Positions 171 through 59,797 of a DNA stretch of 64,000 bases are shown here, one piece after another. Both the position numbers and the translations under genes were made by a program. Under the pieces are notes generated by a model that worked only from the letters and a program-made list of their open reading frames with translations, did no database searches and had not been told where the DNA came from. Source of the stretch: Candidatus Omnitrophota bacterium (GTDB taxonomy: Bacteria > Omnitrophota > Gorgyraeia > Gygaellales > Profunditerraquicolaceae); the NCBI GenBank assembly GCA_041653955.1, contig JBAZEH010000005.1, positions 178 through 64,177 of the forward strand. The letters are read 5' to 3'. Numbering within the stretch: position 1 is the first letter of the stretch; the number at the start of each line of letters is the position of its first letter.

Positions 171-229
171 AGGGACACCCTTAGCTTTGGCTGAAAGGGT
201 GTCCCTTGATTGGATCCAAGGGTGTCCCT
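171..229. repeat. Palindromic repeat element, copy 1: GGGACACCC-TTAGCTTTGGCTGAAA-GGGTGTCCC-TTGATTGGATCCAA-GGGTGTCCC
   Basis: A 9-bp inverted repeat GGGACACCC/GGGTGTCCC around an ~16-nt core, with an extra GGGTGTCCC arm. It is closely related to copies at 48241, 51011, 3498, 3558 and 44721. It overlaps the last ~15 codons of queC. Confidence 0.7.
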
Positions 230-840
230 GCGCGGTAACGGCAGCTGTCGCATACTCCGCATGGTTTCCTGCCGCCGCGGTAACATGACCAGGTCAGGCC
301 GACAGGAACTCCTAAACTCAATCCCTTGCGGACTATCTCTGCTTTCCCCATCTTTATCAACGGAGTTACTATCTTCGGTCCCCTCTTTTTGACCCCGGAG
401 AGGGTGCCTGTGTTGATCACTTTGAGAAACGCGCGGTAAAACTCCGGACGGCAATCAGGATAACCGCTATAATCCTGCGTGTGCGCTCCGATAAATATCG
501 CCTCTGCCCCTGTTGCCTCGGCATAGGACAAGGCAAAACTTAAGAAAATTATATTGCGGCCCGGCACATAAGTCGACGGCACTTTACCCGTGCGGCGGCT
601 GGGGACTTTCAGCCTTTTATCTAATAGACTCGATCCTCCCCACGGCAATCCGATTTTCATCAACCGGATAGGAGAACCGCTTAACCGCGCTATCTTCCTG
701 GCGGCCCTTATCTCTTTCTTATGGCGCTGCCCGTAATCAAAAACCAGGCAAAAACATTTATATCCCTGCTTCCTGGCGATATATAAAGTTACGGCTGAAT
801 CAAGGCCTCCGGATAATAAAACTATCGCCTTCTTCATCAT
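181..840 (-). CDS. queC: 7-cyano-7-deazaguanine synthase QueC (C-terminal tail runs into the repeat element)
   Basis: The N-terminal PP-loop motif is [11 protein letters not shown]. The C-terminal zinc motif is CGVCDSC. The final ~15 residues are encoded by the palindromic repeat. Confidence 0.85.
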
Positions 841-1983: not shown

Positions 1984-3080
1984 TGTCTTGCCATCTCCAT
2001 TGAAGCGCGTTCACGCGCATATATTTTTACCCCTTCACAGATACCCTCGGCTATCTGCTGGCGGTAATAAGAGTTTCTAAGCAGCTTCTCCTCCTGGTAG
2101 TTGGATAAAAAACCTGTCTCAACCAGTATCGCCGGCATACGCACTCCCTTTAAAACATAAAAATTTGCTGACTTGACACCGATGATCCTTATATTTACGC
2201 TGCTATCCACTGAATGGCATATACCGCGGGCTAATTTTACCGATTCCGCGCGGTTAGATGTATGGATCATATCCCAGAGTATAGCCCTTAAATTCAAAGA
2301 CGGGGTAGAAGCAAAAGAGGAGCTTTTCAGGCCCAAATTAGCGTTCTGCGCGCAATATAACGCGCGTTTGGAATCATCGGCCTTGGGAGAGACATAATAT
2401 ACCTCAAGCCCCTTCAGGCTCCTTACATGGTTGGCATTAGCGTGCACGCTGATAAAAAGGTCTGCTCCGGAACTATTTGCTATAGATACCCTGCGCGCCA
2501 GGGATACAAAGATATCGGATGAACGCGTCATCACTACATCTATCCCCTCGGCTTTCAACATTTTGCTTAGCCTTTTGGCTATATCCAGATTTACATCTTT
2601 CTCTTTCAAACCGTTCCTGCCTATCGCCCCGGGGTCCTTCCCTCCGTGCCCGGCGTCAATAACTACTTTTCTGATCCTGACTGCGGGAGCGCATGTTGCT
2701 GCTGTACGCTGCGGACGGTATCCTTTAAATAAACGGTCTAAGACCTGCTCTTTAAATCTATACGGGACTACTACCGCTCCCTGGTATATATCCACGGGGT
2801 AACTTAGGTACTCCGGAGCGTCATCTACCAATACAAGCTTCTCCCCTACCATTAAATTTATCTTATGCCCGCCCTTAGTAAGGCTGACTGTGCGGATAAA
2901 AGTATCATATTTCCACGATATATTCTGCGAACCGCAAAGAGAGGAGAGTGATACGTAGCTCACACCTCCGATATTATAAGTAGTCAGCGTTTCCCTGGTT
3001 GACACAGTGGCGCAACCGGAAAAGCTGAGGGCTAACAATCCAAGGGCCAGGATAAAAACTGATAATTTTCTGATTTTCAT
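1980..3080 (-). CDS. N-acetylmuramoyl-L-alanine amidase (Amidase_3) lipoprotein, AmiC-like
   Basis: Lipoprotein signal (LALSFSGC). C-terminal Amidase_3 motifs: VVIDAGHGGKDPGA ... FISVHANA. Confidence 0.75.
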   Translation of the reverse strand: MKIRKLSVFILALGLLALSFSGCATVSTRETLTTYNIGGVSYVSLSSLCGSQNISWKYDTFIRTVSLTKGGHKINLMVGEKLVLVDDAPEYLSYPVDIYQGAVVVPYRFKEQVLDRLFKGYRPQRTAATCAPAVRIRKVVIDAGHGGKDPGAIGRNGLKEKDVNLDIAKRLSKMLKAEGIDVVMTRSSDIFVSLARRVSIANSSGADLFISVHANANHVRSLKGLEVYYVSPKADDSKRALYCAQNANLGLKSSSFASTPSLNLRAILWDMIHTSNRAESVKLARGICHSVDSSVNIRIIGVKSANFYVLKGVRMPAILVETGFLSNYQEEKLLRNSYYRQQIAEGICEGVKIYARERASMEMARQ

Positions 3081-3092
3081 AAATGAGACAAA

Positions 3093-3490
3093 TGGTGGAG
3101 GTGGGCGGAATTGAACCGCCGTCCCCGGACAATCACGTAAAAGCCGCTACATGCTTAGTTTATCTTTTATGCTTACTTCTGCCTGCTCCGGTAAACAGGA
3201 TAAGGCAGACAGCAGCCTTTTTTAATTTCACCCGCGCCCCAAAGGCTAATTTACACGGGCTATCCTGCTATCCGCTCTCGTTTAAGCCACAGGCAGCCTA
3301 AGGAGAGGCTTCGCTAATTTAGTTAGCGAAGACTGGTGCCAGACCCATACCCATTGTGATGGGCATCGGCTGGACGCTGAACAGTTGTCTGTTTGCGTTT
3401 ATCTTGTGCAAGGGTTGTTAACGCGGCTAACCTCGCATCCGCGACATGCTGCTCTTACCCGACTCATCCAGGTCGAGACCTTTCACCCCC
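3093..3490 (-). ncRNA. ssrA: tmRNA (SsrA)
   Basis: The minus-strand RNA starts GGGGGUGAAAGGUCUCGAC and ends with a tRNA-like T-arm and acceptor, GGUUCAAUUCCGCCCACCUCCACCA. The 5'/3' acceptor pairing is intact. It is directly adjacent to smpB. Confidence 0.85.
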
Positions 3491-3497
3491 ATATTTT

Positions 3498-3594
3498 AGG
3501 GACGGTTCTTCAACCAAAGCGAAAAGTGTCCCCAAGAATGCTACTACCTGTACAAACAGGGACACTTTCCCGATTGGCTCGAGAACCGTCCCTA
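3498..3594. repeat. Two inverted copies of the palindromic repeat (3498-3534 and 3558-3594), filling the smpB-ssrA intergenic region
   Basis: Copy A is AGGGACGGTTCTTCAACCAAAGCGAAAAGTGTCCCC. Copy B is AGGGACACTTTCCCGATTGGCTCGAGAACCGTCCCTA. The reverse complement of B is near-identical to A. Both share the GGGACAC/GTGTCCC termini with the other copies. Confidence 0.7.
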
Positions 3595-3598
3595 CTTT

Positions 3599-4051
3599 TT
3601 ACTTTTTGCGCTTGATGGCGCGGCGCATCTCTAAATCCACTTCTTTGCGCTTGATAGTTTCTCGACGGTCATAAAGTTTCTTGCCTTTACAAAGAGCGAG
3701 CTCTATCTTGGCGAAACCCCTATCGTTAAAGTATGCCTTAAGGGGCACAAGAGTAAACCCCTTCTGCGCTATCTTACCCTCCAGCTTAATGATCTGGGCC
3801 TTACGCAACAAGAGGCGCCTGGGCCTTTTGGGCTCAACGTTCAGGTAGCTCGCCTGAACGTAAGGGCTTATATGCGTATTATAGAGTATTACTTCATTCT
3901 TCTCTACGCGGGCAAAACTATCTTCCATATTCATCTTACCCGCCCGCAAAGATTTTACTTCGCTGCCCTTAAGCTCTATGCCGCATTCAAGGGTTTCTAA
4001 AACCTCATAGTCCCTGCGAGCCTTCTTATTGCTGGAGATGAGCCCATTCAT
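3599..4051 (-). CDS. smpB: SsrA-binding protein SmpB
   Basis: 150 aa (NKKARRDYEVLETLECGIELKGSEVKSL ... ) with the basic C-terminal tail typical of SmpB. Confidence 0.9.
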   Translation of the reverse strand: MNGLISSNKKARRDYEVLETLECGIELKGSEVKSLRAGKMNMEDSFARVEKNEVILYNTHISPYVQASYLNVEPKRPRRLLLRKAQIIKLEGKIAQKGFTLVPLKAYFNDRGFAKIELALCKGKKLYDRRETIKRKEVDLEMRRAIKRKK

Positions 4052-5007
4052 TTTATCACGCTAAGGGTAAAATATAAACTCAAAAATAAGGGCAAGGTGA
4101 TAAGGCTTGCGAGATGGCTGAAGAATATACCCTGGCTGATAAGCAGGTCTTCCTTTTTATAATGGCTTGTGATCACAGATAATAAGGTCGCCGAAGGAGC
4201 GGCTAATTCTATCACTATCAATAAACCTGTCAATTGAGGTATTTTAAATATTACCAGCAGCCATACCCCCATAACAGGCAATATGATCAATTTTGCCAGT
4301 ACGAGGAGCGAGACCGCCTTCTTATCCACTTGCTTGAAACGTATGGCGGCGAGGTTCCCTCCCACTACAAGCATCGCCAAAGGAAGGGTACAATCACCTG
4401 CCGCTCGCAGCGGCTTCAGGAACGGTTCGGGTATTGACCTGTCTAAGCCAAAAAATATCAATATCAAAGTAACCAGTGTAGCTATTACCGGAGGGCTGAA
4501 CAGGCTGCCTAATTCAAATTTACTGGCCTTGGTAAAAGTAAGCATATACGCGCCTAAAGAGAACATGACCATATTGAATCCGGCGAGGAATAAAAATAAA
4601 TAGACGAACATAATGCTTAACTGTTCAGCCGGCAATAATGCCGCTACCAGCGCCAGCGGCAAATATCCTGAGTTCTGAAAAGTCACCAGGCTTAAAAACT
4701 GCAGTTTATGCTCATGCCCTTTTATAAAAACGGAGAATACCGCACCCGCCAGAAGGCCTGCGACGGTAATAGTGATACTTATCAAAGGGAATACCCACCA
4801 ATCAGGATACAGAGAAAAAGAGAAATCCCTGATCAGCTGGGTAAATATCAATAGTGGCAGTGTAACCTCTACGACCAGGCGGCTTAAGGCATGCAGACCT
4901 TCAGCCCCCAGTATATTCTTTTTAATAAGAAAATACCCCAGGGCGGCCAGCATGAATATCTCTGCCACTGCGGTACCGGTCACCTTAAATGACTCTAAAA
5001 ACATCAC
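4048..5007 (-). CDS. AEC-family (auxin efflux carrier-like) membrane transporter
   Basis: 319 aa, polytopic and hydrophobic, with an N-terminal half/C-terminal half repeat architecture typical of AEC/malate permease-like proteins. Confidence 0.65.
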   Translation of the reverse strand: MMFLESFKVTGTAVAEIFMLAALGYFLIKKNILGAEGLHALSRLVVEVTLPLLIFTQLIRDFSFSLYPDWWVFPLISITITVAGLLAGAVFSVFIKGHEHKLQFLSLVTFQNSGYLPLALVAALLPAEQLSIMFVYLFLFLAGFNMVMFSLGAYMLTFTKASKFELGSLFSPPVIATLVTLILIFFGLDRSIPEPFLKPLRAAGDCTLPLAMLVVGGNLAAIRFKQVDKKAVSLLVLAKLIILPVMGVWLLVIFKIPQLTGLLIVIELAAPSATLLSVITSHYKKEDLLISQGIFFSHLASLITLPLFLSLYFTLSVIK

Positions 5008-19139: not shown

Positions 19140-19174
19140 AGGGACGTCTTTACAAACAAAATAAAGGGTGCCCC
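19140..19174. repeat. Degenerate copy of the GGGAC ... GTCCC palindromic element
   Basis: AGGGACGTCTTTACAAACAAAATAAAGGGTGCCCC keeps the termini and spacing of copy A at 3498. It lies in the thiL-tsaE intergenic gap. Confidence 0.3.
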
Positions 19175-19204
19175 AAATTCAAAGAGATCCCTATATTAGC
19201 GAAG

Positions 19205-42063: not shown

Positions 42064-42127
42064 AGGGACACTTCTTGAGCCGATTGAGTGACGCTTCTTG
42101 AACCAATCAAAGAAGCGTCCCCTTGGT

Positions 42128-44663: not shown

Positions 44664-44689
44664 CTTCCCCTCCCCAAAGCAAAGACGCT

Positions 44690-44757
44690 TTCCAACGCAA
44701 AGCGGAAAGTGTACCCCCTTAGGGACACTTTCCCGATTGGCGCGAGAACCGTCCCTA
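44690..44757. repeat. Palindromic repeat locus upstream of htpX: a partial A-type copy (44690-44718) plus a full B-type copy (44721-44757)
   Basis: AGGGACACTTTCCCGATTGGCGCGAGAACCGTCCCTA differs by 1 nt from the copy at 3558-3594. It is preceded by CAACGCAAAGCGGAAAGTGTACCCC, which resembles the 3' half of the copy at 3498. Confidence 0.65.
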
Positions 44758-47167: not shown

Positions 47168-48196
47168 TTATTTCTGCGGATAAATGATTACTTTTATGGA
47201 TCCTTGGGCCCCTACAACAAGTTTAAATCCCTCCCCTGTCCCGGATAAATTAAAACGGTGCGTAATCATATCACGGATATTTAATTTATGCCCCGCGATC
47301 AGGCCAAGCGCTTCTTTATAATCAGAAGGGCTCCCCGCGTATGAACTCGTAAGGGTTATTTCGGTGCGCCAGAATATCTTATTGAAATCAAACGGGATCT
47401 CTCTGTCTTTATCCGTAGGGGCAAAAAAGAGGATAGTCCCGCCGCGTTCAACAGACCCCAGCGCCTGCTGAATAGCAGAAGGCGCCCCCGCGGTCACTAT
47501 TACCAGGTCCGCGAGCCTGCCCTGGTTCAACCCGCGTAATATATCGGCAGAATAATCTTTGGCGTTTATGGCCCTATCCGCTCCAAATCTCTCGGCTGCC
47601 TTAAGGCGGTAATCCGCTATATCGGTGGCTATGATCCTTGCCGCTCCGTTTACCCTGGCAAGATGTATATGCAATAACCCGGCGATACCGCTTCCTGCTA
47701 CCAAAACATTCATTCCCTTTTTCAGGCCCGCTGTCCTCTGTCCCCTGATCACGCAGGCCAAAGGCTCGATAAAGGTAGCCTCATCAAAAGATACTGTATC
47801 AGGAAGAGAGAAAACTCCGCGATCCACGTTTATCCTGGGGAGACGGGAATATTCACAAAATCCTCCCGGATCAAAGTTAGTGCTGCGCAATGTATCGCAA
47901 ACTGTTTCATGCCCGGATAAACAATAATTGCATTTTCCGCAAGGGACATGGTGCGCGCAGGCCACTCTGTCCCCCTTCTTATAATTATCTACACCCTCTC
48001 CGGCTTCTTCTATGACACCGGCTATCTCATGCCCTAATACAAGGGGCGTGCGGTTTATGCGATACCACTCCATAACATCGCTGCCGCATATCCCTGACGC
48101 CTCAACCCGTATAACCAGTTCGCCCGGTCCCGCCTTGGGCTTAGGCATCTGTTCTATCCGTATATCGTTATTATTATAATAAACTGCCGCGCGCAT
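47168..48196 (-). CDS. Zinc-dependent alcohol dehydrogenase (MDR family, sorbitol/threonine dehydrogenase-like)
   Basis: GHEIAGVIEE Zn-binding motif, structural Zn cysteines CGKCNYC, and the Rossmann motif VAGSGIAG. Confidence 0.8.
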   Translation of the reverse strand: MRAAVYYNNNDIRIEQMPKPKAGPGELVIRVEASGICGSDVMEWYRINRTPLVLGHEIAGVIEEAGEGVDNYKKGDRVACAHHVPCGKCNYCLSGHETVCDTLRSTNFDPGGFCEYSRLPRINVDRGVFSLPDTVSFDEATFIEPLACVIRGQRTAGLKKGMNVLVAGSGIAGLLHIHLARVNGAARIIATDIADYRLKAAERFGADRAINAKDYSADILRGLNQGRLADLVIVTAGAPSAIQQALGSVERGGTILFFAPTDKDREIPFDFNKIFWRTEITLTSSYAGSPSDYKEALGLIAGHKLNIRDMITHRFNLSGTGEGFKLVVGAQGSIKVIIYPQK

Positions 48197-48240: not shown

Positions 48241-48275
48241 AGGGACACCCCTTCAGCCAAAGCTAAGGGTGTCCC
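48241..48275. repeat. Palindromic repeat copy (reverse orientation) upstream of the GH94-like gene
   Basis: AGGGACACCCCTTCAGCCAAAGCTAAGGGTGTCCC is the reverse complement of the 171/51011 type. It lies in the divergent adh / GH94-like promoter region. Confidence 0.7.
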
Positions 48276-48285
48276 TTTAAAAGGC

Positions 48286-51010: not shown

Positions 51011-51070
51011 AGGGACACCCTTAGCTTTGGCAAAAAGGGTGTCCCTCGATTGGCAAAAAGGGTGTCCCTA
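51011..51070. repeat. Palindromic repeat copy with a duplicated arm, between the convergent GH94-like and STAS-PilZ genes
   Basis: AGGGACACCC-TTAGCTTTGGC-AAAAA-GGGTGTCCC-TCGATTGGC-AAAAA-GGGTGTCCC. It is in inverted orientation relative to the copy at 48241. Confidence 0.7.
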
Positions 51071-54486: not shown

Positions 54487-55221
54487 CTAAATATATTGCA
54501 GCGCCCTTTTGATATCTTCGGATCTGGCTACCCTGACATCTTTCAGCGGGTACTCCAATCCAAGATACTCCCACTTATGCTTTCCGAGGGTATGATATGG
54601 CAGGAATTCAAAATTAGACGCGTGGCGAAAACCGCGGACCAGACTACCTAGCGCTTTTAAGTCCTTTTCTGTATCGTTGAGTCCGGGCGCAAGGACATAA
54701 CGTATCCAATACGGCTTTTTGTTCTCTTCAAGCAAATTAATAAAATCCAACACCTGCTTTAGGTCTCTTGAGGTAATACGCTTGTGCAGATCCTTGTCTA
54801 CCGACTTTATGTCTACAAGAAAAAGATCGGTTAACTCAAGAAGCGAAAACAGTTTATATTCATCCTGTGGGCGGTAAAAGGCGCCCGTGTCTATCGCGGT
54901 ATGCACGCCCCGTTCTTTACAGAGGCAGAATAACTCCTTCAGAAAATCCATTTGCAGCAATGGCTCGCCTCCGGAGACCGTTATGCCTCCTTTTGAGGAA
55001 ATAATATACGGCATGCACTTATCCAGCTTCCTGACAACCTGTTCGGCGCTCATCTGCCTGCCTGCCCTTTCATTCCAGGTGTCGGGGTTATGGCAATACA
55101 AACAGCGCGCCAGGCAGCCCTGCATAAAAAGCACAAACCTTATCCCGGGGCCTTCGTGCGTGCCGAACGTCTCAAAAGAATGGATATTCCCTATAACGGT
55201 TTTACTCTTACATGCTTTCAT
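54487..55221 (-). CDS. pflA: Pyruvate formate-lyase activating enzyme (radical SAM)
   Basis: CxxxCxxC ([14 protein letters not shown]). 244 aa. It overlaps the 3' end of pflB. Confidence 0.85.
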
Positions 55222-57418
55222 GGAATGTCCTTGCCAATACCTCTTTCTGCTGCTCCGTGGATAATTTATTAAAGTGCACCGCGTATCCGGATACCCTGAT
55301 GGTCAGCTGCGGGTATTTATGCGGGTTCTTCATAGCGTCCTCAAGGGTTTCCTTGTCAATCACGTTGACATTAAGATGGTGCGCCCCCTTCATGAAGTAG
55401 CCGTCAAGCAGTGATTTTAAATTTGACCTCCTGCTCTCATGGGTATTCCCCAGCGCTTCGGGGAGCGATGAGAAGGTATTGGATATCCCGTCGCGGCATT
55501 CCGTATAGGGGATAGCGGCCACTGAATTAAGGGACGCGATTATCCCGTTATCATCCCTGCCGTGCATAGGGTTTGCTCCCGGGGCAAAAGGCTCCCCCTT
55601 TTCTCTCCCGTCAGGGGTAGAGCCGGTCTTCTTGCCATACATAACATTTGAGGTAATAGTAAGGATCGATATTGCCGGGAAGGAATTCCTGTAAAGCTTA
55701 TGCTTCTTAAGCTCTGTAAGGAACAGGTTCACCAGGTCAACTGCCCTGCCATCGACCTTATCGTCGTCATTGCCGAATTTAGGAAAATCTCCTTCTATAT
55801 TAAAAGATGTGGTCAGGTTCTTCTTATTCCTTATGGCGCTCACCTTAGCGTAACGTATAGCGCTTAAGGAATCGGCCGCCACCGATAACCCGGCGATACC
55901 AAAAGCCATATAACGGGTAAGCTCGGTATCCAACAGGGCCATCTGGGCTCTTTCATAATAATAGGTGTCGTGAGAGCAATGGATGATATTCAGGGCTTCA
56001 ACATAGGTCTTCACAGTCCATCTTAAAACCTGCATGAACTTCTCTTTCACTTCATTGTGGTCTAAAGGATTTGATTTGATAGGCGCTATATCCGGGACTA
56101 CCTTCTCTCCCGTTATCTCATCGCGGCCTTCATTCAAGGCGTAAAGAAGCGCCTTGGGCAGATTGCAACGCGCCCCGAAATACTGCATCTCGCTCCCATT
56201 TTTAAGCAGGGATACACAGCAGGATATGCTATAGTCATCCCCTCCGATAAGGCGCATCATATCGTCATTTTCGTATTGTATAGAGCTGGTCTTTATAGAA
56301 ACATCCGCGCAAAAACCCTTGAATGGTTCAGGCAGGCGGCTTGACCAAAGCACGGTAAGATTGGGCTCCGGGGCCGGGCCCAGATTAAACAGTGTCTGGA
56401 GGAACCGGTATGAACTTCTGGTCACCTTGTGCCTTCCGTCTATACCTACGCCCCCTATACTTTCAGTGACCCAAACCGGGTCTCCGGCGAATATGTCGGA
56501 GTATGCTTTGGTGCGCAGGTGCCGGACGATCCTGATCTTTATCACAAAATCATCTATCAACTCCTGGGCTGTTTCTTCCGTAATGACCCCGCGCTTCAGG
56601 TCATTCTCAATATATATATCAAAGAAATTGCTCACGCTCCCAAGGCTCATCGCCGCGCCATCCTGTTCTTTTACGGCGGCAAGATAAGCGAGGTATACCC
56701 ATTGTATCGCTTCGCTTGCGTTTTGTGCTGGCCTTGAAAGGTCAAAACCATACATATTCCCCAAAGCAATGATATCTTCAAGGGCAGTGATCTGCTCGGC
56801 GATCTCACCCCTTAATCTTATAGCCTCTTCGGTAGAATAATCTTCAAGGGTCTCCTTGTCATGTTTCTTCGCCGCAATAAGTTTTTTGATACCGTAAAGC
56901 GCGACCCTCCTGAAATCACCTATTATCCTCCCGCGGGAGTAATTATCCGGCAGTCCTGTAATTAAACCGGTATGCCTGGCTTTTAATATATCCGCGGTAT
57001 AGGCATCAAATACGGCATCATTGTGGGTTTTGCGGTATTTGGTATATATCTCTTTTACTCTGGGGCTAAGCTTATAGCCGTAATCTTCACAGGCTGCCTC
57101 TACAAGCCTTATCCCGCCTAAAGGCTTGATAGCCCTCTTTAACGGCTCATCGGTTTGAAGGCCCTTGATCAATTCCAGCTTCTCATCTATATACCCCGGC
57201 TTATGGCTGGTTATGGTAGATACGGTTTCGGTATCTATATCATACACCCCGCCCCTCTTATTCTCCTCTTCAAATAGCTTCAGGCACTTATCCCACAGGG
57301 CTTTGGTCCTGGCTGTAGGCCCCTTTAAGAATGAACTATCACCGTCATAAGGAGTATAGTTCCTGTTGATAAAATCCCTTACGTCTATTGTCTTATCCCA
57401 CCTGCCTCTTTTAAACAT
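55208..57418 (-). CDS. pflB: Pyruvate formate-lyase (glycyl radical enzyme)
   Basis: C-terminal glycyl-radical motif [29 protein letters not shown] and active-site CC (SISCCVS). The start is set at the ATG at 57418 (MFKRGRW), preceded by GGGGGTG. The track ORF extends 24 codons further upstream. Confidence 0.9.
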
Positions 57419-57430
57419 CTTAACACCCCC

Positions 57431-57580
57431 TGCCCAGAAAGGGCGCACCCGGCAATCCAATAAGCCGAGGTGCCTATAAAAAGAAAACACCCGGGTTACA
57501 AAAACCCAGGTGTACGGTTTTCACTTCTTTTTAAGCGCTTCCTCATGGTTTCCCATGTTGACCACCAGTCGCGCTTCACC
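57431..57580 (-). promoter_or_regulatory. Candidate ZTP (pfl-motif) riboswitch in the pflB 5' leader
   Basis: The 5' subdomain is AGCGCGACUGGUGGUCAACAUGGGAAACCAUGAGGAAGCGCU, with P1 GCGC/GCGC enclosing GACUGG and a GGGAAACC hairpin, as in the pfl/ZTP consensus. About 75 nt downstream is a 3' subdomain-like CCGGGUGCGCC ... UGGGCA, directly before the RBS. The linker holds a stable hairpin with a U-run (57476-57512). Confidence 0.45.
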
Positions 57581-57594
57581 AAATTGTCATACTA

Positions 57595-59476: not shown

Positions 59477-59797
59477 TGGCTCCCCCTCGAGGACTCGAAC
59501 CTCGGACCTGGTGGTTACAAGCAACCCGGAGTTACTCCCGGACCTGGACTATATCTTTGCCATGGCTTTCGCTTTAGGCAGCAGGTGCATAGTCTCTGAA
59601 CCTTCCCTGATTTCTCAAGGCTCGGCTGCTGATTACCCTCGCCTTTACGTTCGGGCTTCCAGCAATTCTCCTGCTTTTTCAACCGCGATTTCCCGCGGAA
59701 GCTGCCTTTATTCATCCCTCGCGCCCCTGCGCCCGGGACAAACCCCGCGTTCGCGGGATTTGACAGCCACTCGCTCTACCGACTGAGCTAAGGGGGA
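59477..59797 (-). tRNA. tRNA-Asn (GUU) gene interrupted in the anticodon loop (between positions 35 and 36) by a group I intron. Exons are 59763-59797 and 59477-59517.
   Basis: The 5' exon is UCCCCCUUAGCUCAGUCGGUAGAGCGAGUGGCUGU. The 3' exon is UAACCACCAGGUCCGAGGUUCGAGUCCUCGAGGGGGAGCCA. Joined, they give a 76-nt cloverleaf with U1-A72, G73 and anticodon loop CUGUUAA. The 5' exon ends in U, and the intron ends in G. Confidence 0.7.
59518..59762 (-). ncRNA. Group I self-splicing intron (~245 nt, no ORF)
   Basis: The core elements are GUUCAGAGACUA (P7 5' strand), AAGAUAUAGUCC (P7 3' strand), a P9 hairpin CCGGGAGUAACUCCGGG, and a terminal omega-G. A candidate internal guide sequence GGCAGC is complementary to the exon end GCUGU. 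Confidence 0.65.

Follow-up and report, generated by a model that had tools for sequence, protein, structure and literature searches.

What occupies the spacer between smpB and the tmRNA gene ssrA in this Omnitrophota genome, where two palindromic repeats lie in opposite orientation, and does it serve the tmRNA gene or belong to a repeat family that is not specific to this locus? An REP unit is a short imperfect palindrome, and an REPIN combines two inverted REP units in a single long hairpin. The repeats are, in our judgment, very probably REP sequences of an REPIN-RAYT system, and their spread is probably the work of a tyrosine transposase that has been domesticated (RAYT); its catalysis and the mobility of the repeats are assigned by comparison with E. 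coli TnpA-REP. The features of the locus, numbered in the 64-kb window (the whole stretch of DNA that was analyzed, 64,000 nt), are as follows.

3498-3533, minus strand: left REP unit of the REPIN (nhmmer E = 6.6e-8)
3534-3557, no strand: hairpin loop of the REPIN, a 24-nt spacer whose sequence is not conserved
3558-3593, plus strand: right REP unit of the REPIN (nhmmer E = 1.7e-7)
3093-3490, minus strand: tmRNA gene ssrA, context (ARAGORN; Rfam RF00023, 169.8 bits)
3599-4051, minus strand: smpB, context (Pfam PF01668 on the identical product; ORF list)

Read on the plus strand, the left unit (3498-3533) is AGGGACGGTTCT-TCAACCAAAGCG-AAAAGTGTCCCC, of the CCAAAGC type, and the right unit (3558-3593) is AGGGACACTTTC-CCGATTGGCTCG-AGAACCGTCCCT, of the CGATTGG type. 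The GTCCC-to-GGGAC distance is 26, within the 24-26 length class, and the two units are 81% complementary when the right one is taken as 3559-3594. The whole smpB-ssrA spacer folds as a single hairpin (-56.5 kcal/mol, z = -7.0). The REPIN begins 5 nt past the smpB stop codon and ends 7 nt short of the tmRNA 5′ end, confirming that an inverted pair fills the spacer, as an earlier note on this DNA had described. Among relatives in which smpB is followed by ssrA (SmpB 58-79% identical), the repeat was present at 0 of 24 loci, and the pair was found solely in the same species (L114, SmpB 99%). The spacers of 6 of the 24 relatives were merely 3-11 nt long; the longer ones hold other, unrelated palindromes, and a hairpin thus recurs at that spot. 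The same note had held that the ssrA promoter must lie in the spacer. A scan of the smpB-ssrA spacer for sigma-70-type promoters found none, and the 3-11-nt spacers of the six relatives also speak against this claim; in this group, therefore, the promoter that serves ssrA would lie inside smpB or 5′ of it. No tmRNA gene besides the window's own was found near repeat copies in the 112 comparative loci, among the matches listed. The smpB-ssrA pair is a species-specific insertion and not a regulatory site for the tmRNA gene. It would represent one REPIN insertion, fixed in this species, that is presumably transcribed within the smpB-ssrA precursor; at most it may have a secondary effect, such as shielding the 3′ end of smpB once the tmRNA has been excised by RNase P.

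The window holds six full 34-nt units (GGGACAC..wTTGG..GTCCC), called with an nhmmer profile, and four partial or decayed ones; together they make up 7 elements per 64 kb, or about one per 9 kb. The unit is exactly 34 nt long, or 36 nt counting the flanking A/G and T, and has the form GGGACAC-YYT-N5-TTGG-N10-GTCCC. Its ends, GGGAC and GTCCC, pair in all cases, and a self-complementary subtype forms stems of 9-12 bp. The pattern GGGACAC-N10-40-GTGTCCC matched the window three times versus 0.00 expected by chance, and GGGAC-N18-32-GTCCC matched seven times versus 0.6 expected, a number to which 0 shuffles got. One of these seven matches, at 47943, is unrelated to the repeat family. The commonest 12-mer of the window is the arm AGGGACACCCTT, and the top-ranking 12- and 16-mers are REP k-mers. 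Besides the smpB-ssrA pair, the window carries the following elements.

171-229, plus strand: REP unit and a half, comprising a full self-complementary unit (171-206, nhmmer) and a half unit (207-229)
19140-19190, minus strand: remnant of a decayed REPIN, between tsaE and thiL (nhmmer E = 4.6; fold z = -1.4)
42064-42122, minus strand: REP unit and a half, its arms variant: GGGGACGCTTCTT / AAGAAGCGTC / AAGAAGTGTCCCT (nhmmer partial matches)
44684-44756, plus strand: REPIN 5′ of an M48 (htpX-like) peptidase gene (fold -36.5 kcal/mol, z = -4.7)
48241-48276, minus strand: lone self-complementary REP unit (nhmmer profile, fold)
51011-51069, plus strand: REP unit and a half in a convergent gap, comprising a full unit (51011-51046) and a half unit (51047-51069)

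The copies that the earlier note had positioned are all present, the family being enriched over chance, but its list had missed the element at 42064-42122 on the minus strand. What it described as a second GGGTGTCCC arm does occur: at 207-229 and at 51047-51069, a half unit made up of the loop and the 3′ arm adjoins a full unit. Near 44690, where it had listed a partial copy, lies the degenerate left unit (~44684-44720) of an REPIN whose right unit (44721-44756) is intact and whose loop measures 4 nt, so that a pair similar to the smpB-ssrA one indeed lies upstream of the htpX-like gene. The element at 42064-42122 (fold -25.3 kcal/mol, z = -3.3) lies between an FtsX-like permease gene and the gene for a class II aminoacyl-tRNA synthetase of D/K/N type (Pfam tRNA-synt_2), the unit at 48241-48276 occupies the divergent gap between a GH94-like gene and one that resembles zinc alcohol dehydrogenase genes, and the element at 51011-51069 folds at -37.3 kcal/mol (z = -5.9). 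All elements in the window lie outside ORFs except two: the one at 171-229, which reaches into queC (181-840, minus strand) over its final ~16 codons and stop codon, and one at the GH94-like gene, whose TTG start is over-extended. Every copy is thus located in non-coding DNA or at the end of a gene.

The same repeat family was found in at least 46 other species-level genomes, nearly all labelled Omnitrophota. Our comparative set comprised 112 loci from 46 other genomes, among the matches listed, with 195 full units. Only 19% of the 195 units fell inside crude ORF calls, which covered 92% of the DNA of these loci (112, among the matches listed). Among the matches listed, too, the arm sequence was kept across genomes whose orthologous proteins are 41-83% identical, and the flank profile showed no conserved bases other than A or G ahead of GGGAC and T behind GTCCC. 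The invariance of GGGACAC, TTGG and GTCCC in the family profiles was partly imposed by the search patterns and is in that respect circular; the same unit ends were nevertheless recovered by profile, free of any pattern constraint, around independently retrieved RAYT genes. Orthologous sites held an element that was intact, decayed or absent. At the queC 3′ end, an REPIN was seen at the same place in one relative (L037) and was absent from another (L052). In the tsaE-thiL spacer, an intact pair exists in one related genome (L038:6448-6535), the element is absent from a second (L095), and it is decayed in the window; because of that intact pair, the degenerate copy noted earlier at 19140, weak when taken alone, can be read as a decayed element. 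The phylum also has a GTAG-type REP that is distinct from this family and accompanied by an RAYT of its own (L051, L126).

The architecture of the pairs was uniform. Relative orientation was identical in 53 of 53 pairs from the comparative loci, among the matches listed. In the 52 distinct pairs among these matches, left positions 1-11 paired with right positions 34-24 in 79-100%, the outer arms showing several compensatory pair types, and the inner arms paired in 87-100%. The two units differ in sequence from each other: the canonical left unit reads AGGGAC-armX-..CCAAAGC..-GTGTCCCC and, after a short spacer, the canonical right unit reads GGGGACAC-..CGATTGG..-armX′-GTCCCT. Spacer sequence is free, even inside one genome, whereas spacer length is constrained and falls in steps of ~9.5 nt (6, 16, 25, 34 and 44 nt; 57 pairs, among the matches listed). 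Beside the paired CCAA/TTGG, an all-mismatch three-base bubble (TCG/GCT) was kept in 46 of the 52 pairs, again among the matches listed. Side motifs were seen in some spacers, AGATAA/TTATCT in several of 14 nt and GAATTYGAAAT in those of 32 nt; their offsets varied and no model resulted. Single units could not be regarded as simply a self-folding subtype, since 46 of 81, among the matches listed, had nothing beyond the 5-bp end stem.

Clustering of the ORFs at repeat loci yielded a family of 160-166 aa adjoining the repeats. The 160-aa transposase matched Pfam Y1_Tnp (E 1e-17 to 1e-19) and scored 77-79 bits over its full length with NCBIfam REP_Tyr_transpos (curated cutoff 80), versus 21-24 bits with the IS200 model. 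The motifs PNH(I/V/A)H, LWQGR and Y120-V-E-x-N124-P were invariant in 32 RAYT sequences. They agree with the TnpA-REP class 2 signature, namely NHxH, WQ and Y[IV]xxNP with N instead of Q at catalytic Y+4 (Quentin et al. 2018, PMC6006769), including the N at Y+4. The AlphaFold model of the protein (pLDDT 86) found its best PDB match in 4ER8, the E. coli RAYT-REP complex (TM 0.78), versus TM ≤0.56 for IS608, ISDra2 and IS200 TnpA (normalised by query length).

The search for a cognate IS200/RAYT-type transposase that the earlier note had proposed was thus positive: other Omnitrophota assemblies yielded 11 cases, distinct at the protein level, of an RAYT-like gene flanked by repeat units, six of them via protein homology alone. 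Among the loci selected by the repeat, four of five full-length RAYT genes were flanked on both sides; of the fifth, which borders a contig end, a single flank was available. Likewise flanked were all six proteins (11 loci) chosen by homology and long contigs; at these loci, the left unit ends 59-92 nt 5′ of the ATG and the right unit begins 0-12 nt past the stop. The arm subtype agrees between both flanks of an RAYT gene. All six homology-selected RAYTs share one neighborhood, in which a ~550-aa protein precedes the RAYT and a ParA-T2SSE protein comes after it, usually with DUF192 in between, and the RAYT gene sits among pilin-like and T2SSE ATPase genes. DUF192 was also the next gene at three of the five repeat-selected loci; its gene was set aside as a system component and treated as a syntenic neighbor. 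Most RAYT protein sequences were recorded on one or few contigs, and the genes may be vertically inherited, to judge by their shared neighborhood. A tblastn search found no RAYT gene in the 64-kb window, whose right end (ABC-F, recR, dnaX) does not match the RAYT neighborhood; we infer that an RAYT is present in the window's own genome.

The REPIN may accordingly be pictured as a gene-less version of the left and right units that bracket the 160-aa Y1/HUH RAYT in other Omnitrophota. If it works like E. coli TnpA-REP and the TnpA of IS200/IS605, the RAYT would recognize the folded single-stranded element; which strand is active is probably signaled by the conserved three-base mismatch beside the paired CCAA/TTGG. 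The enzyme would cut at the hairpin foot and re-join the element into other single-stranded DNA, which would leave no target duplication; the surviving copies would be mainly those downstream of genes. A check for target-site duplications, also suggested earlier, found none at any boundary offset: flanking direct repeats were 0-1 nt long in 128 of 140 elements and 3-4 nt in just five, among the matches listed. A DDE-type MITE, with terminal inverted repeats and a target duplication, was rejected, there being no duplication excess at any boundary shift. The suggestion of REP/MITE-like selfish repeats is thereby retained in its REP-RAYT form, to which the 11 flanked RAYT cases and the varying orthologous sites point, but not as a classical MITE.

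The Omnitrophota system shares much with gammaproteobacterial REPIN-RAYT systems (E. coli REP/BIME with TnpA-REP; Pseudomonas REPINs with Group 2/3 RAYTs): short, extragenic, imperfect palindromes; inverted doublets that form long hairpins with compensatory changes; a repeat-bracketed Y1/HUH transposase at a stable chromosomal position; and no target duplications. Doublets of two different REP variants recall the E. coli Y/Z units, and the conserved stem irregularity recalls that of E. coli REP, where the bulge is required for TnpA-REP activity (PMC8266576). The Omnitrophota unit differs from gammaproteobacterial REPs in lacking GTAG, in its conserved ends, (A/G)GGGAC..GTCCCT, and in a large 10-12-nt loop carrying wTTGG, and the spacer of the REPIN is fixed in length class and not in sequence. 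An REP family is as a rule restricted to one species or genus, whereas this one is common to at least 46 species-level genomes. No GTAG (GT[AG]G) tetranucleotide was present 5′ of the hairpin foot in the flank profile; the family therefore lies outside the GTAG superfamily, and not outside REP-RAYT systems generally, atypical REPs having been described for other TnpA-REP classes (PMC6006769). With the GTAG- and CGTC-tagged superfamilies (Di Nocera et al. 2013, PMC3733652), it shares the prevalence of one dimer orientation and of heterodimers over homodimers, the preference for co-directional and convergent gaps, and occasional units at or inside gene ends. However, neither tag stands in the defined position here, stems of 5-12 bp with loops of 10-12 nt fit none of the 28 families of that study, and the CGTC families are without a transposase link, unlike the Omnitrophota family (PMC3733652). 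Neisseria uptake sequences and Correia elements are likewise short repeats common to related species, often as inverted pairs downstream of genes, but the former are 10-12 nt long and have no transposase, the latter have terminal inverted repeats and TA duplications, and neither brackets a Y1 transposase gene.

Several other readings of the elements were weighed. It is improbable that they are primarily host RNA signals, that is, factor-independent terminators or attenuators, mRNA 3′-end stabilizers or processing sites, with the smpB one shaping precursor processing. Such a role would suit the strong hairpins, the position of single units at a median of 21-25 nt past the upstream stop codon, the ~3-fold excess of convergent over divergent gaps (14 versus 4 for whole elements, singles plus pairs; both among the matches listed), and the unrelated palindromes in the longer smpB-ssrA spacers of relatives; E. 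coli REPs, moreover, are known mRNA stabilizers. However, an intrinsic terminator was rejected, as the loops are 10-12 nt long and the 3′ flank profile, weakly enriched in T, shows no run of Ts past the stems, and a terminator scan of 3000-4200 returned nothing at the repeats. The elements occur in both orientations to transcription: 16 single units in the same and 32 in the opposite orientation, a weak bias, and pairs at 17 versus 8 in their chirality relative to genes, which is not significant (p = 0.11), both among the matches listed. Rfam 15 gave no match at gathering score at the repeats, with generic microRNA-model matches reaching 28 versus 85 bits, and so a structured RNA module, one of the roles raised earlier, is not upheld as the primary one. 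Elements also lie in divergent, promoter-side gaps (48241), six relatives have no hairpin at all between smpB and ssrA, and the bracketing of a transposase gene by the units would be left unexplained. We give hardly any credence to the proposal that the units are operators for a palindrome-binding regulator of proteostasis genes (ssrA, htpX). It draws on the two window pairs upstream of ssrA and the M48 (htpX-like) peptidase gene, but fails against the 24 related smpB-ssrA spacers lacking the element, the scarcity of tmRNA genes near copies (no other among the matches listed, 112 loci), the location of most copies downstream of genes, and adjoining genes that are functionally unrelated (queC, class II aminoacyl-tRNA synthetase, GH94-like, PilZ/STAS, thiL, mtnA).

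Derivation of the repeats as miniature (PATE- or MITE-like) forms of an ordinary multi-copy, horizontally moving IS200/IS605 element, and not from a single-copy domesticated RAYT, is very unlikely. IS200/IS605 elements and PATEs have in common with the Omnitrophota system a Y1 HUH transposase (here within the Y1_Tnp superfamily), left and right hairpin ends that differ, and a single-strand mechanism that leaves no target duplication. Against this stand the one conserved syntenic gene site for six proteins, the presence of most RAYT sequences on one or few contigs, the lack of a tnpB partner gene, and a protein nearer to RAYT than to IS200/IS608 in profile score, fold and the Y-x3-N motif, with N rather than Q at Y+4. 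Double-stranded sites for a host protein, conserved for that use and not for transposition, are doubtful as well; the protein would be nucleoid-associated, gyrase or IHF-like, as at E. coli BIMEs, or the receptor for an uptake signal in the adjoining pilus-like system. The ~9.5-nt spacer steps with free spacer sequence, the retention of arm sequence across deep divergence, and the place of the RAYT gene within a pilin-like/T2SSE ATPase cluster are consistent with such sites. Nevertheless, the binding protein is hypothetical, the ~9.5-nt step, taken from a sample of 57 pairs among the matches listed, differs from the 10.5 bp of B-DNA, and the compensatory arm changes point to within-strand pairing and not to a fixed double-stranded recognition sequence.

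Two features are unexplained by the REPIN-RAYT account that we prefer: the ~9.5-nt spacer steps and the conserved three-base mismatch. The conservation of the arms across divergent genomes, together with a spacer constrained in length and free in sequence, hints at selection beyond selfish spread. Because the arms are kept at 41-83% protein identity, spacers fall into ~9.5-nt classes and the bubble persists in 46 of 52 pairs, we allow a small chance that REPINs are under selection as structural DNA sites, or that the RAYT builds pairs with a built-in ruler that places the second unit at set distances. Either, if true, would be a mode of REP biology not yet described.

The Omnitrophota repeats add to the known REPIN-RAYT systems, which to our knowledge have so far been studied almost only in Proteobacteria, and extend them to an uncultivated phylum of very small cells; a literature search found no published REP/RAYT description for Omnitrophota. 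They represent an REP type without the GTAG tag, the feature that most detection tools depend on. For annotators, the hairpins beside smpB-ssrA, htpX and other genes here are to be read as repeat insertions and not as gene-specific regulatory sites, and the repeats account for some contig breaks and some ORFs that overrun their true ends. The fixed RAYT synteny and the kept repeat sequence over dozens of species-level genomes offer unusual comparative depth, with which the question of why bacteria retain RAYTs and their repeats over the very long term may be addressed.

Between its invariant ends the repeat unit of the window, a short imperfect palindrome (REP), is exactly 34 nt long and reads GGGACAC-YYT-N5-TTGG-N10-GTCCC. 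Patterns based on these ends far exceeded chance in the window (3 matches versus 0.00 expected; 7 versus 0.6 expected), and a unit-profile search recovered six full copies as well as two half units abutting full ones. The profile matches included the following features.

42064-42122, a one-and-a-half-unit element that the earlier note did not list
~44684-44720, a degenerate partner unit
19140-19190, a weak remnant

The window is chromosomal and gene dense, with 47% G+C and the majority of its genes on the - strand. About 430 nt of its ~3.1 kb of ORF-free DNA is taken up by the elements, and its commonest 12-mers and 16-mers are REP-derived words. All copies lay outside genes except two. The element at 48241-48276 was overlapped solely by an over-long TTG-initiated ORF, and queC takes its final ~16 codons and its stop codon from the element at 171-229 (positions 181-229). 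The queC frame likewise enters the repeat at L037:774-811 (L-numbers denote loci retrieved from other genomes or metagenomes), although QueC is only 64% identical there. The palindromic family proposed in the earlier note was confirmed.

Other features were also noted in the window. A 10-bp palindrome, GCCTTAAGGC, had six copies (17006, 30486, 40484, 43180, 47598, and 52366), every one intragenic, and its frequency in other Omnitrophota loci was ~0.33 per 64 kb; TTACCGGTAA was present four times. At 59477-59797 (-), a tRNA gene is split in its anticodon loop by a group I intron (Rfam RF00028, 61.4 bits); the intron spans ~59537-59761 (-), and ARAGORN with introns allowed predicted tRNA-Asp(GTC) with a 225-nt intron. 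At 57497-57582 (-), a ZMP/ZTP riboswitch (RF01750, 46.1 bits) immediately precedes the gene (55208-57490) of a PFL-like glycyl-radical enzyme, the setting in which the "pfl motif" is classically found.

One genome per bacterial species was then scanned with GGGACACYYTNNNNNTTGGNNNNNNNNNNGTCCCT. The matches listed comprised at least 112 stretches from at least 46 genomes, nearly all Candidatus Omnitrophota MAGs, with some labeled "uncultured Planctomycetales" and single contigs labeled Firestonebacteria and Bacillota. Because proteins orthologous between these loci and the window were only 41-83% identical, the repeat family spans considerable divergence. The profile identified 195 full units in the listed loci and the window; 19% of them fell within crude ORF calls, though such calls covered 92% of the DNA. 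Whole elements, single or paired, lay mostly in gaps between co-directional genes, and they occupied 14 of 48 convergent but 4 of 43 divergent gaps (chi-square p ~0.02). Target-site duplications, for which the earlier note had suggested a search, were absent at the elements. Orthologous sites differed in content. In the tsaE-thiL spacer the pair is intact in L038, reduced to a decayed remnant in the window (19140-19190), and missing from L095. At the 3′ end of queC, the window and L037 have an element and L052 has none, and the mtnA-thiL junction has a pair in L090 and none in the window or L028. Downstream of queC in L052 (800-850), a different short repeat, GTAGGCTGTAGGCTGTATACTGTACA, replaces the GGGAC element.

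Altogether 86 single units and 53 pairs were counted, and the relative orientation was identical in all 53 pairs and opposite in 0. Read on one strand, the canonical left unit is GGGAC-armX-..CCAAAGC..-GGGTGTCCC, followed by the spacer and then the right unit, GGGACACCC-..CGATTGG..-armX'-GTCCC. Among 52 distinct pairs, positions 1-11 of the outer arms (armX and armX') were paired with the partner in 79-100% and the inner arms in 87-100%, and CCAA of one unit pairs with TTGG of the other. The base pairs at outer-arm positions 6-11 were of various kinds (A-T/G-C, C-G/T-A/G-C, and others), so it is the pairing itself that is preserved. The three positions after CCAA/TTGG, however, were Watson-Crick in merely 2-10% of pairs: TCG in one unit faces GCT in the other, giving T.T, C.C, and G.G mismatches, and such TCG/GCT heterodimers made up 46 of the 52 pairs. 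Since full units are often abutted by half units (loop plus arm), the natural ends of an element are arm-loop-arm-loop-arm, e.g., at 171-229, 42064-42122, and 51011-51069.

The spacers, measured as the distance between the left unit's GTCCC and the right unit's GGGAC, fell into discrete classes.

Spacer lengths of inverted pairs
3-7 nt: 22 pairs
15-16 nt: 17 pairs
24 nt: 5 pairs
26 nt: 2 pairs
34 nt: 5 pairs
44 nt: 1 pair

Below 44 nt, zero pairs fell between the classes. Five longer spacers, of 47, 52, 72, 111, and 111 nt, lay outside them, and those of 47 and 52 nt include a third, degenerate unit. The Rayleigh statistic of spacer length peaked at 0.79 for a 9.5-nt period, a value from a small sample with common descent ignored. 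Such steps are not required by a hairpin loop, and B-DNA phasing would yield 10.5. Each genome favored one class, and spacer sequences were unrelated across genomes and often within one genome. Many 14-nt spacers carry AGATAA/TTATCT at variable offsets (pairs in L029, L062, L024, L097, L099, L018, L036, and L054), and a GAATTYGAAAT palindrome is common to 32-nt spacers (L048, L103, L111, and L079).

All ORFs of the repeat loci were clustered, and families were checked for above-expected adjacency to repeats. The clearest was a 160- to 166-aa protein present in five genomes and, in addition, as one fragment; its Pfam match, Y1_Tnp (E 1e-17 to 1e-19), marks it as a Y1/HUH transposase. It matched the NCBIfam "REP-associated tyrosine transposase" (RAYT) model over its full length at 77-79 bits (cutoff 80) and the IS200 model at 21-24 bits. 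Its sole PDB sequence match was 4ER8, E. coli TnpA-REP, which was also the best structural match of its AlphaFold model (pLDDT 86, pTM 0.83) at TM 0.78/0.76 over the full length, versus at most 0.56 (query-length normalized) for the IS608, ISDra2, and IS200 transposases. The protein has the motifs PNHxH, LWQGR, and Y-V-E-x-N-P; the class 2 TnpA-REP signature has the same motifs, with N, not Q, four residues past the tyrosine (Quentin et al., PMC6006769). The gene has the same bracketing as the pairs that lack a gene: in these loci, a left unit lay ~55-75 nt upstream of its start and a right unit 2-27 nt past its stop.

Because these loci had been selected for the repeat, flanking was retested without bias through homologues. 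A profile search found thousands of ~160-aa homologues, called "transposase [Candidatus Omnitrophota]" where named, and six were taken with location on long contigs as the sole criterion, giving 11 loci (L194-L204). All 11 were flanked, with the left unit ending 59-92 nt before the start codon, the right unit starting 0-12 nt past the stop, and the arm subtype agreeing between sides. The RAYT association that the earlier note had proposed to look for exists in other Omnitrophota. The RAYT sense strand was the CCAAAGC..CGATTGG strand in 8 of 10 cases. The neighborhood of all six proteins ran from a ~550-aa protein through RAYT and usually DUF192 to a 720-aa ParA-T2SSE protein; DUF192 was also the next gene in three of five repeat-selected loci (L043, L050, and L113). 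The ~550-aa protein had no Pfam match, and pilin-like (Class_III signal) genes were close by; the cluster resembles a pilus or secretion cluster. By the criteria of PMC5581495, this RAYT behaves like one that is vertically inherited and immobile, and unlike an insertion sequence. A common sequence, AATTTTTGTTAGATTT..CGTCTATT, precedes the RAYT genes and is probably their promoter. The phylum has a second REP-RAYT system, a 221-aa RAYT (L051:3478-4143) flanked by a GTAG-type REP, TTCCACCTCGTAGGTGGAA.

The inverted pair between smpB and ssrA had been read in the earlier note as a possible regulatory site, and the note also held that the ssrA promoter must lie there.

3093-3490 (-), tmRNA gene
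3599-4051 (-), smpB

For the tmRNA, a long tag peptide of 25 residues with FAN at its end was predicted: ANRQLFSVQPMPITMGMGLAPVFAN. The 108-nt gap contains two inverted 36-nt units (3498-3533 and 3558-3593), 24 nt apart and mutually 81% complementary, and as a single strand it folds into one long hairpin (-56.5 kcal/mol, z = -7.0). Searching metagenomes with SmpB yielded 25 loci with smpB followed by ssrA, a gene order conserved in this group. The pair was present only in L114, whose SmpB is 99% identical and whose spacer is the same as that of the window, and was absent from the other 24 (SmpB 58-79% identical), which does not support the regulatory reading. The spacers of these 24 were 3-162 nt, and six were just 3-11 nt, so that transcription of ssrA in this group starts inside smpB or ahead of it and the promoter premise does not hold. 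Most longer spacers hold palindromes that are particular to the species and have no relation to the GGGAC repeats (L115-L155); that of L126 is the GTAG-type REP found around the L051 RAYT. This suggests that the smpB-ssrA spacer tolerates or attracts hairpin insertions, as a recurrent hairpin or an insertion hot spot. Speculatively, the window pair might affect smpB mRNA stability or precursor processing.

The repeats are very probably a REP/REPIN family served by the RAYT, a REPIN being an inverted REP pair that folds as one hairpin. Proteobacterial REP/BIME/REPIN systems show one preferred doublet orientation, heterodimers, variable-length linkers, and a required stem irregularity (PMC3733652, PMC8266576), and the Omnitrophota family similarly has oriented doublets, heterodimers, variable spacers, and a stem mismatch. 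Our full-text literature search found no paper linking REP, REPIN, RAYT, or IS200 with Omnitrophota. The family differs from known proteobacterial REP systems in its host phylum, in lacking the GTAG tag, and in the large wTTGG loop of its unit, and, unlike described REP systems, its repeat sequence is common to dozens of species-level genomes.
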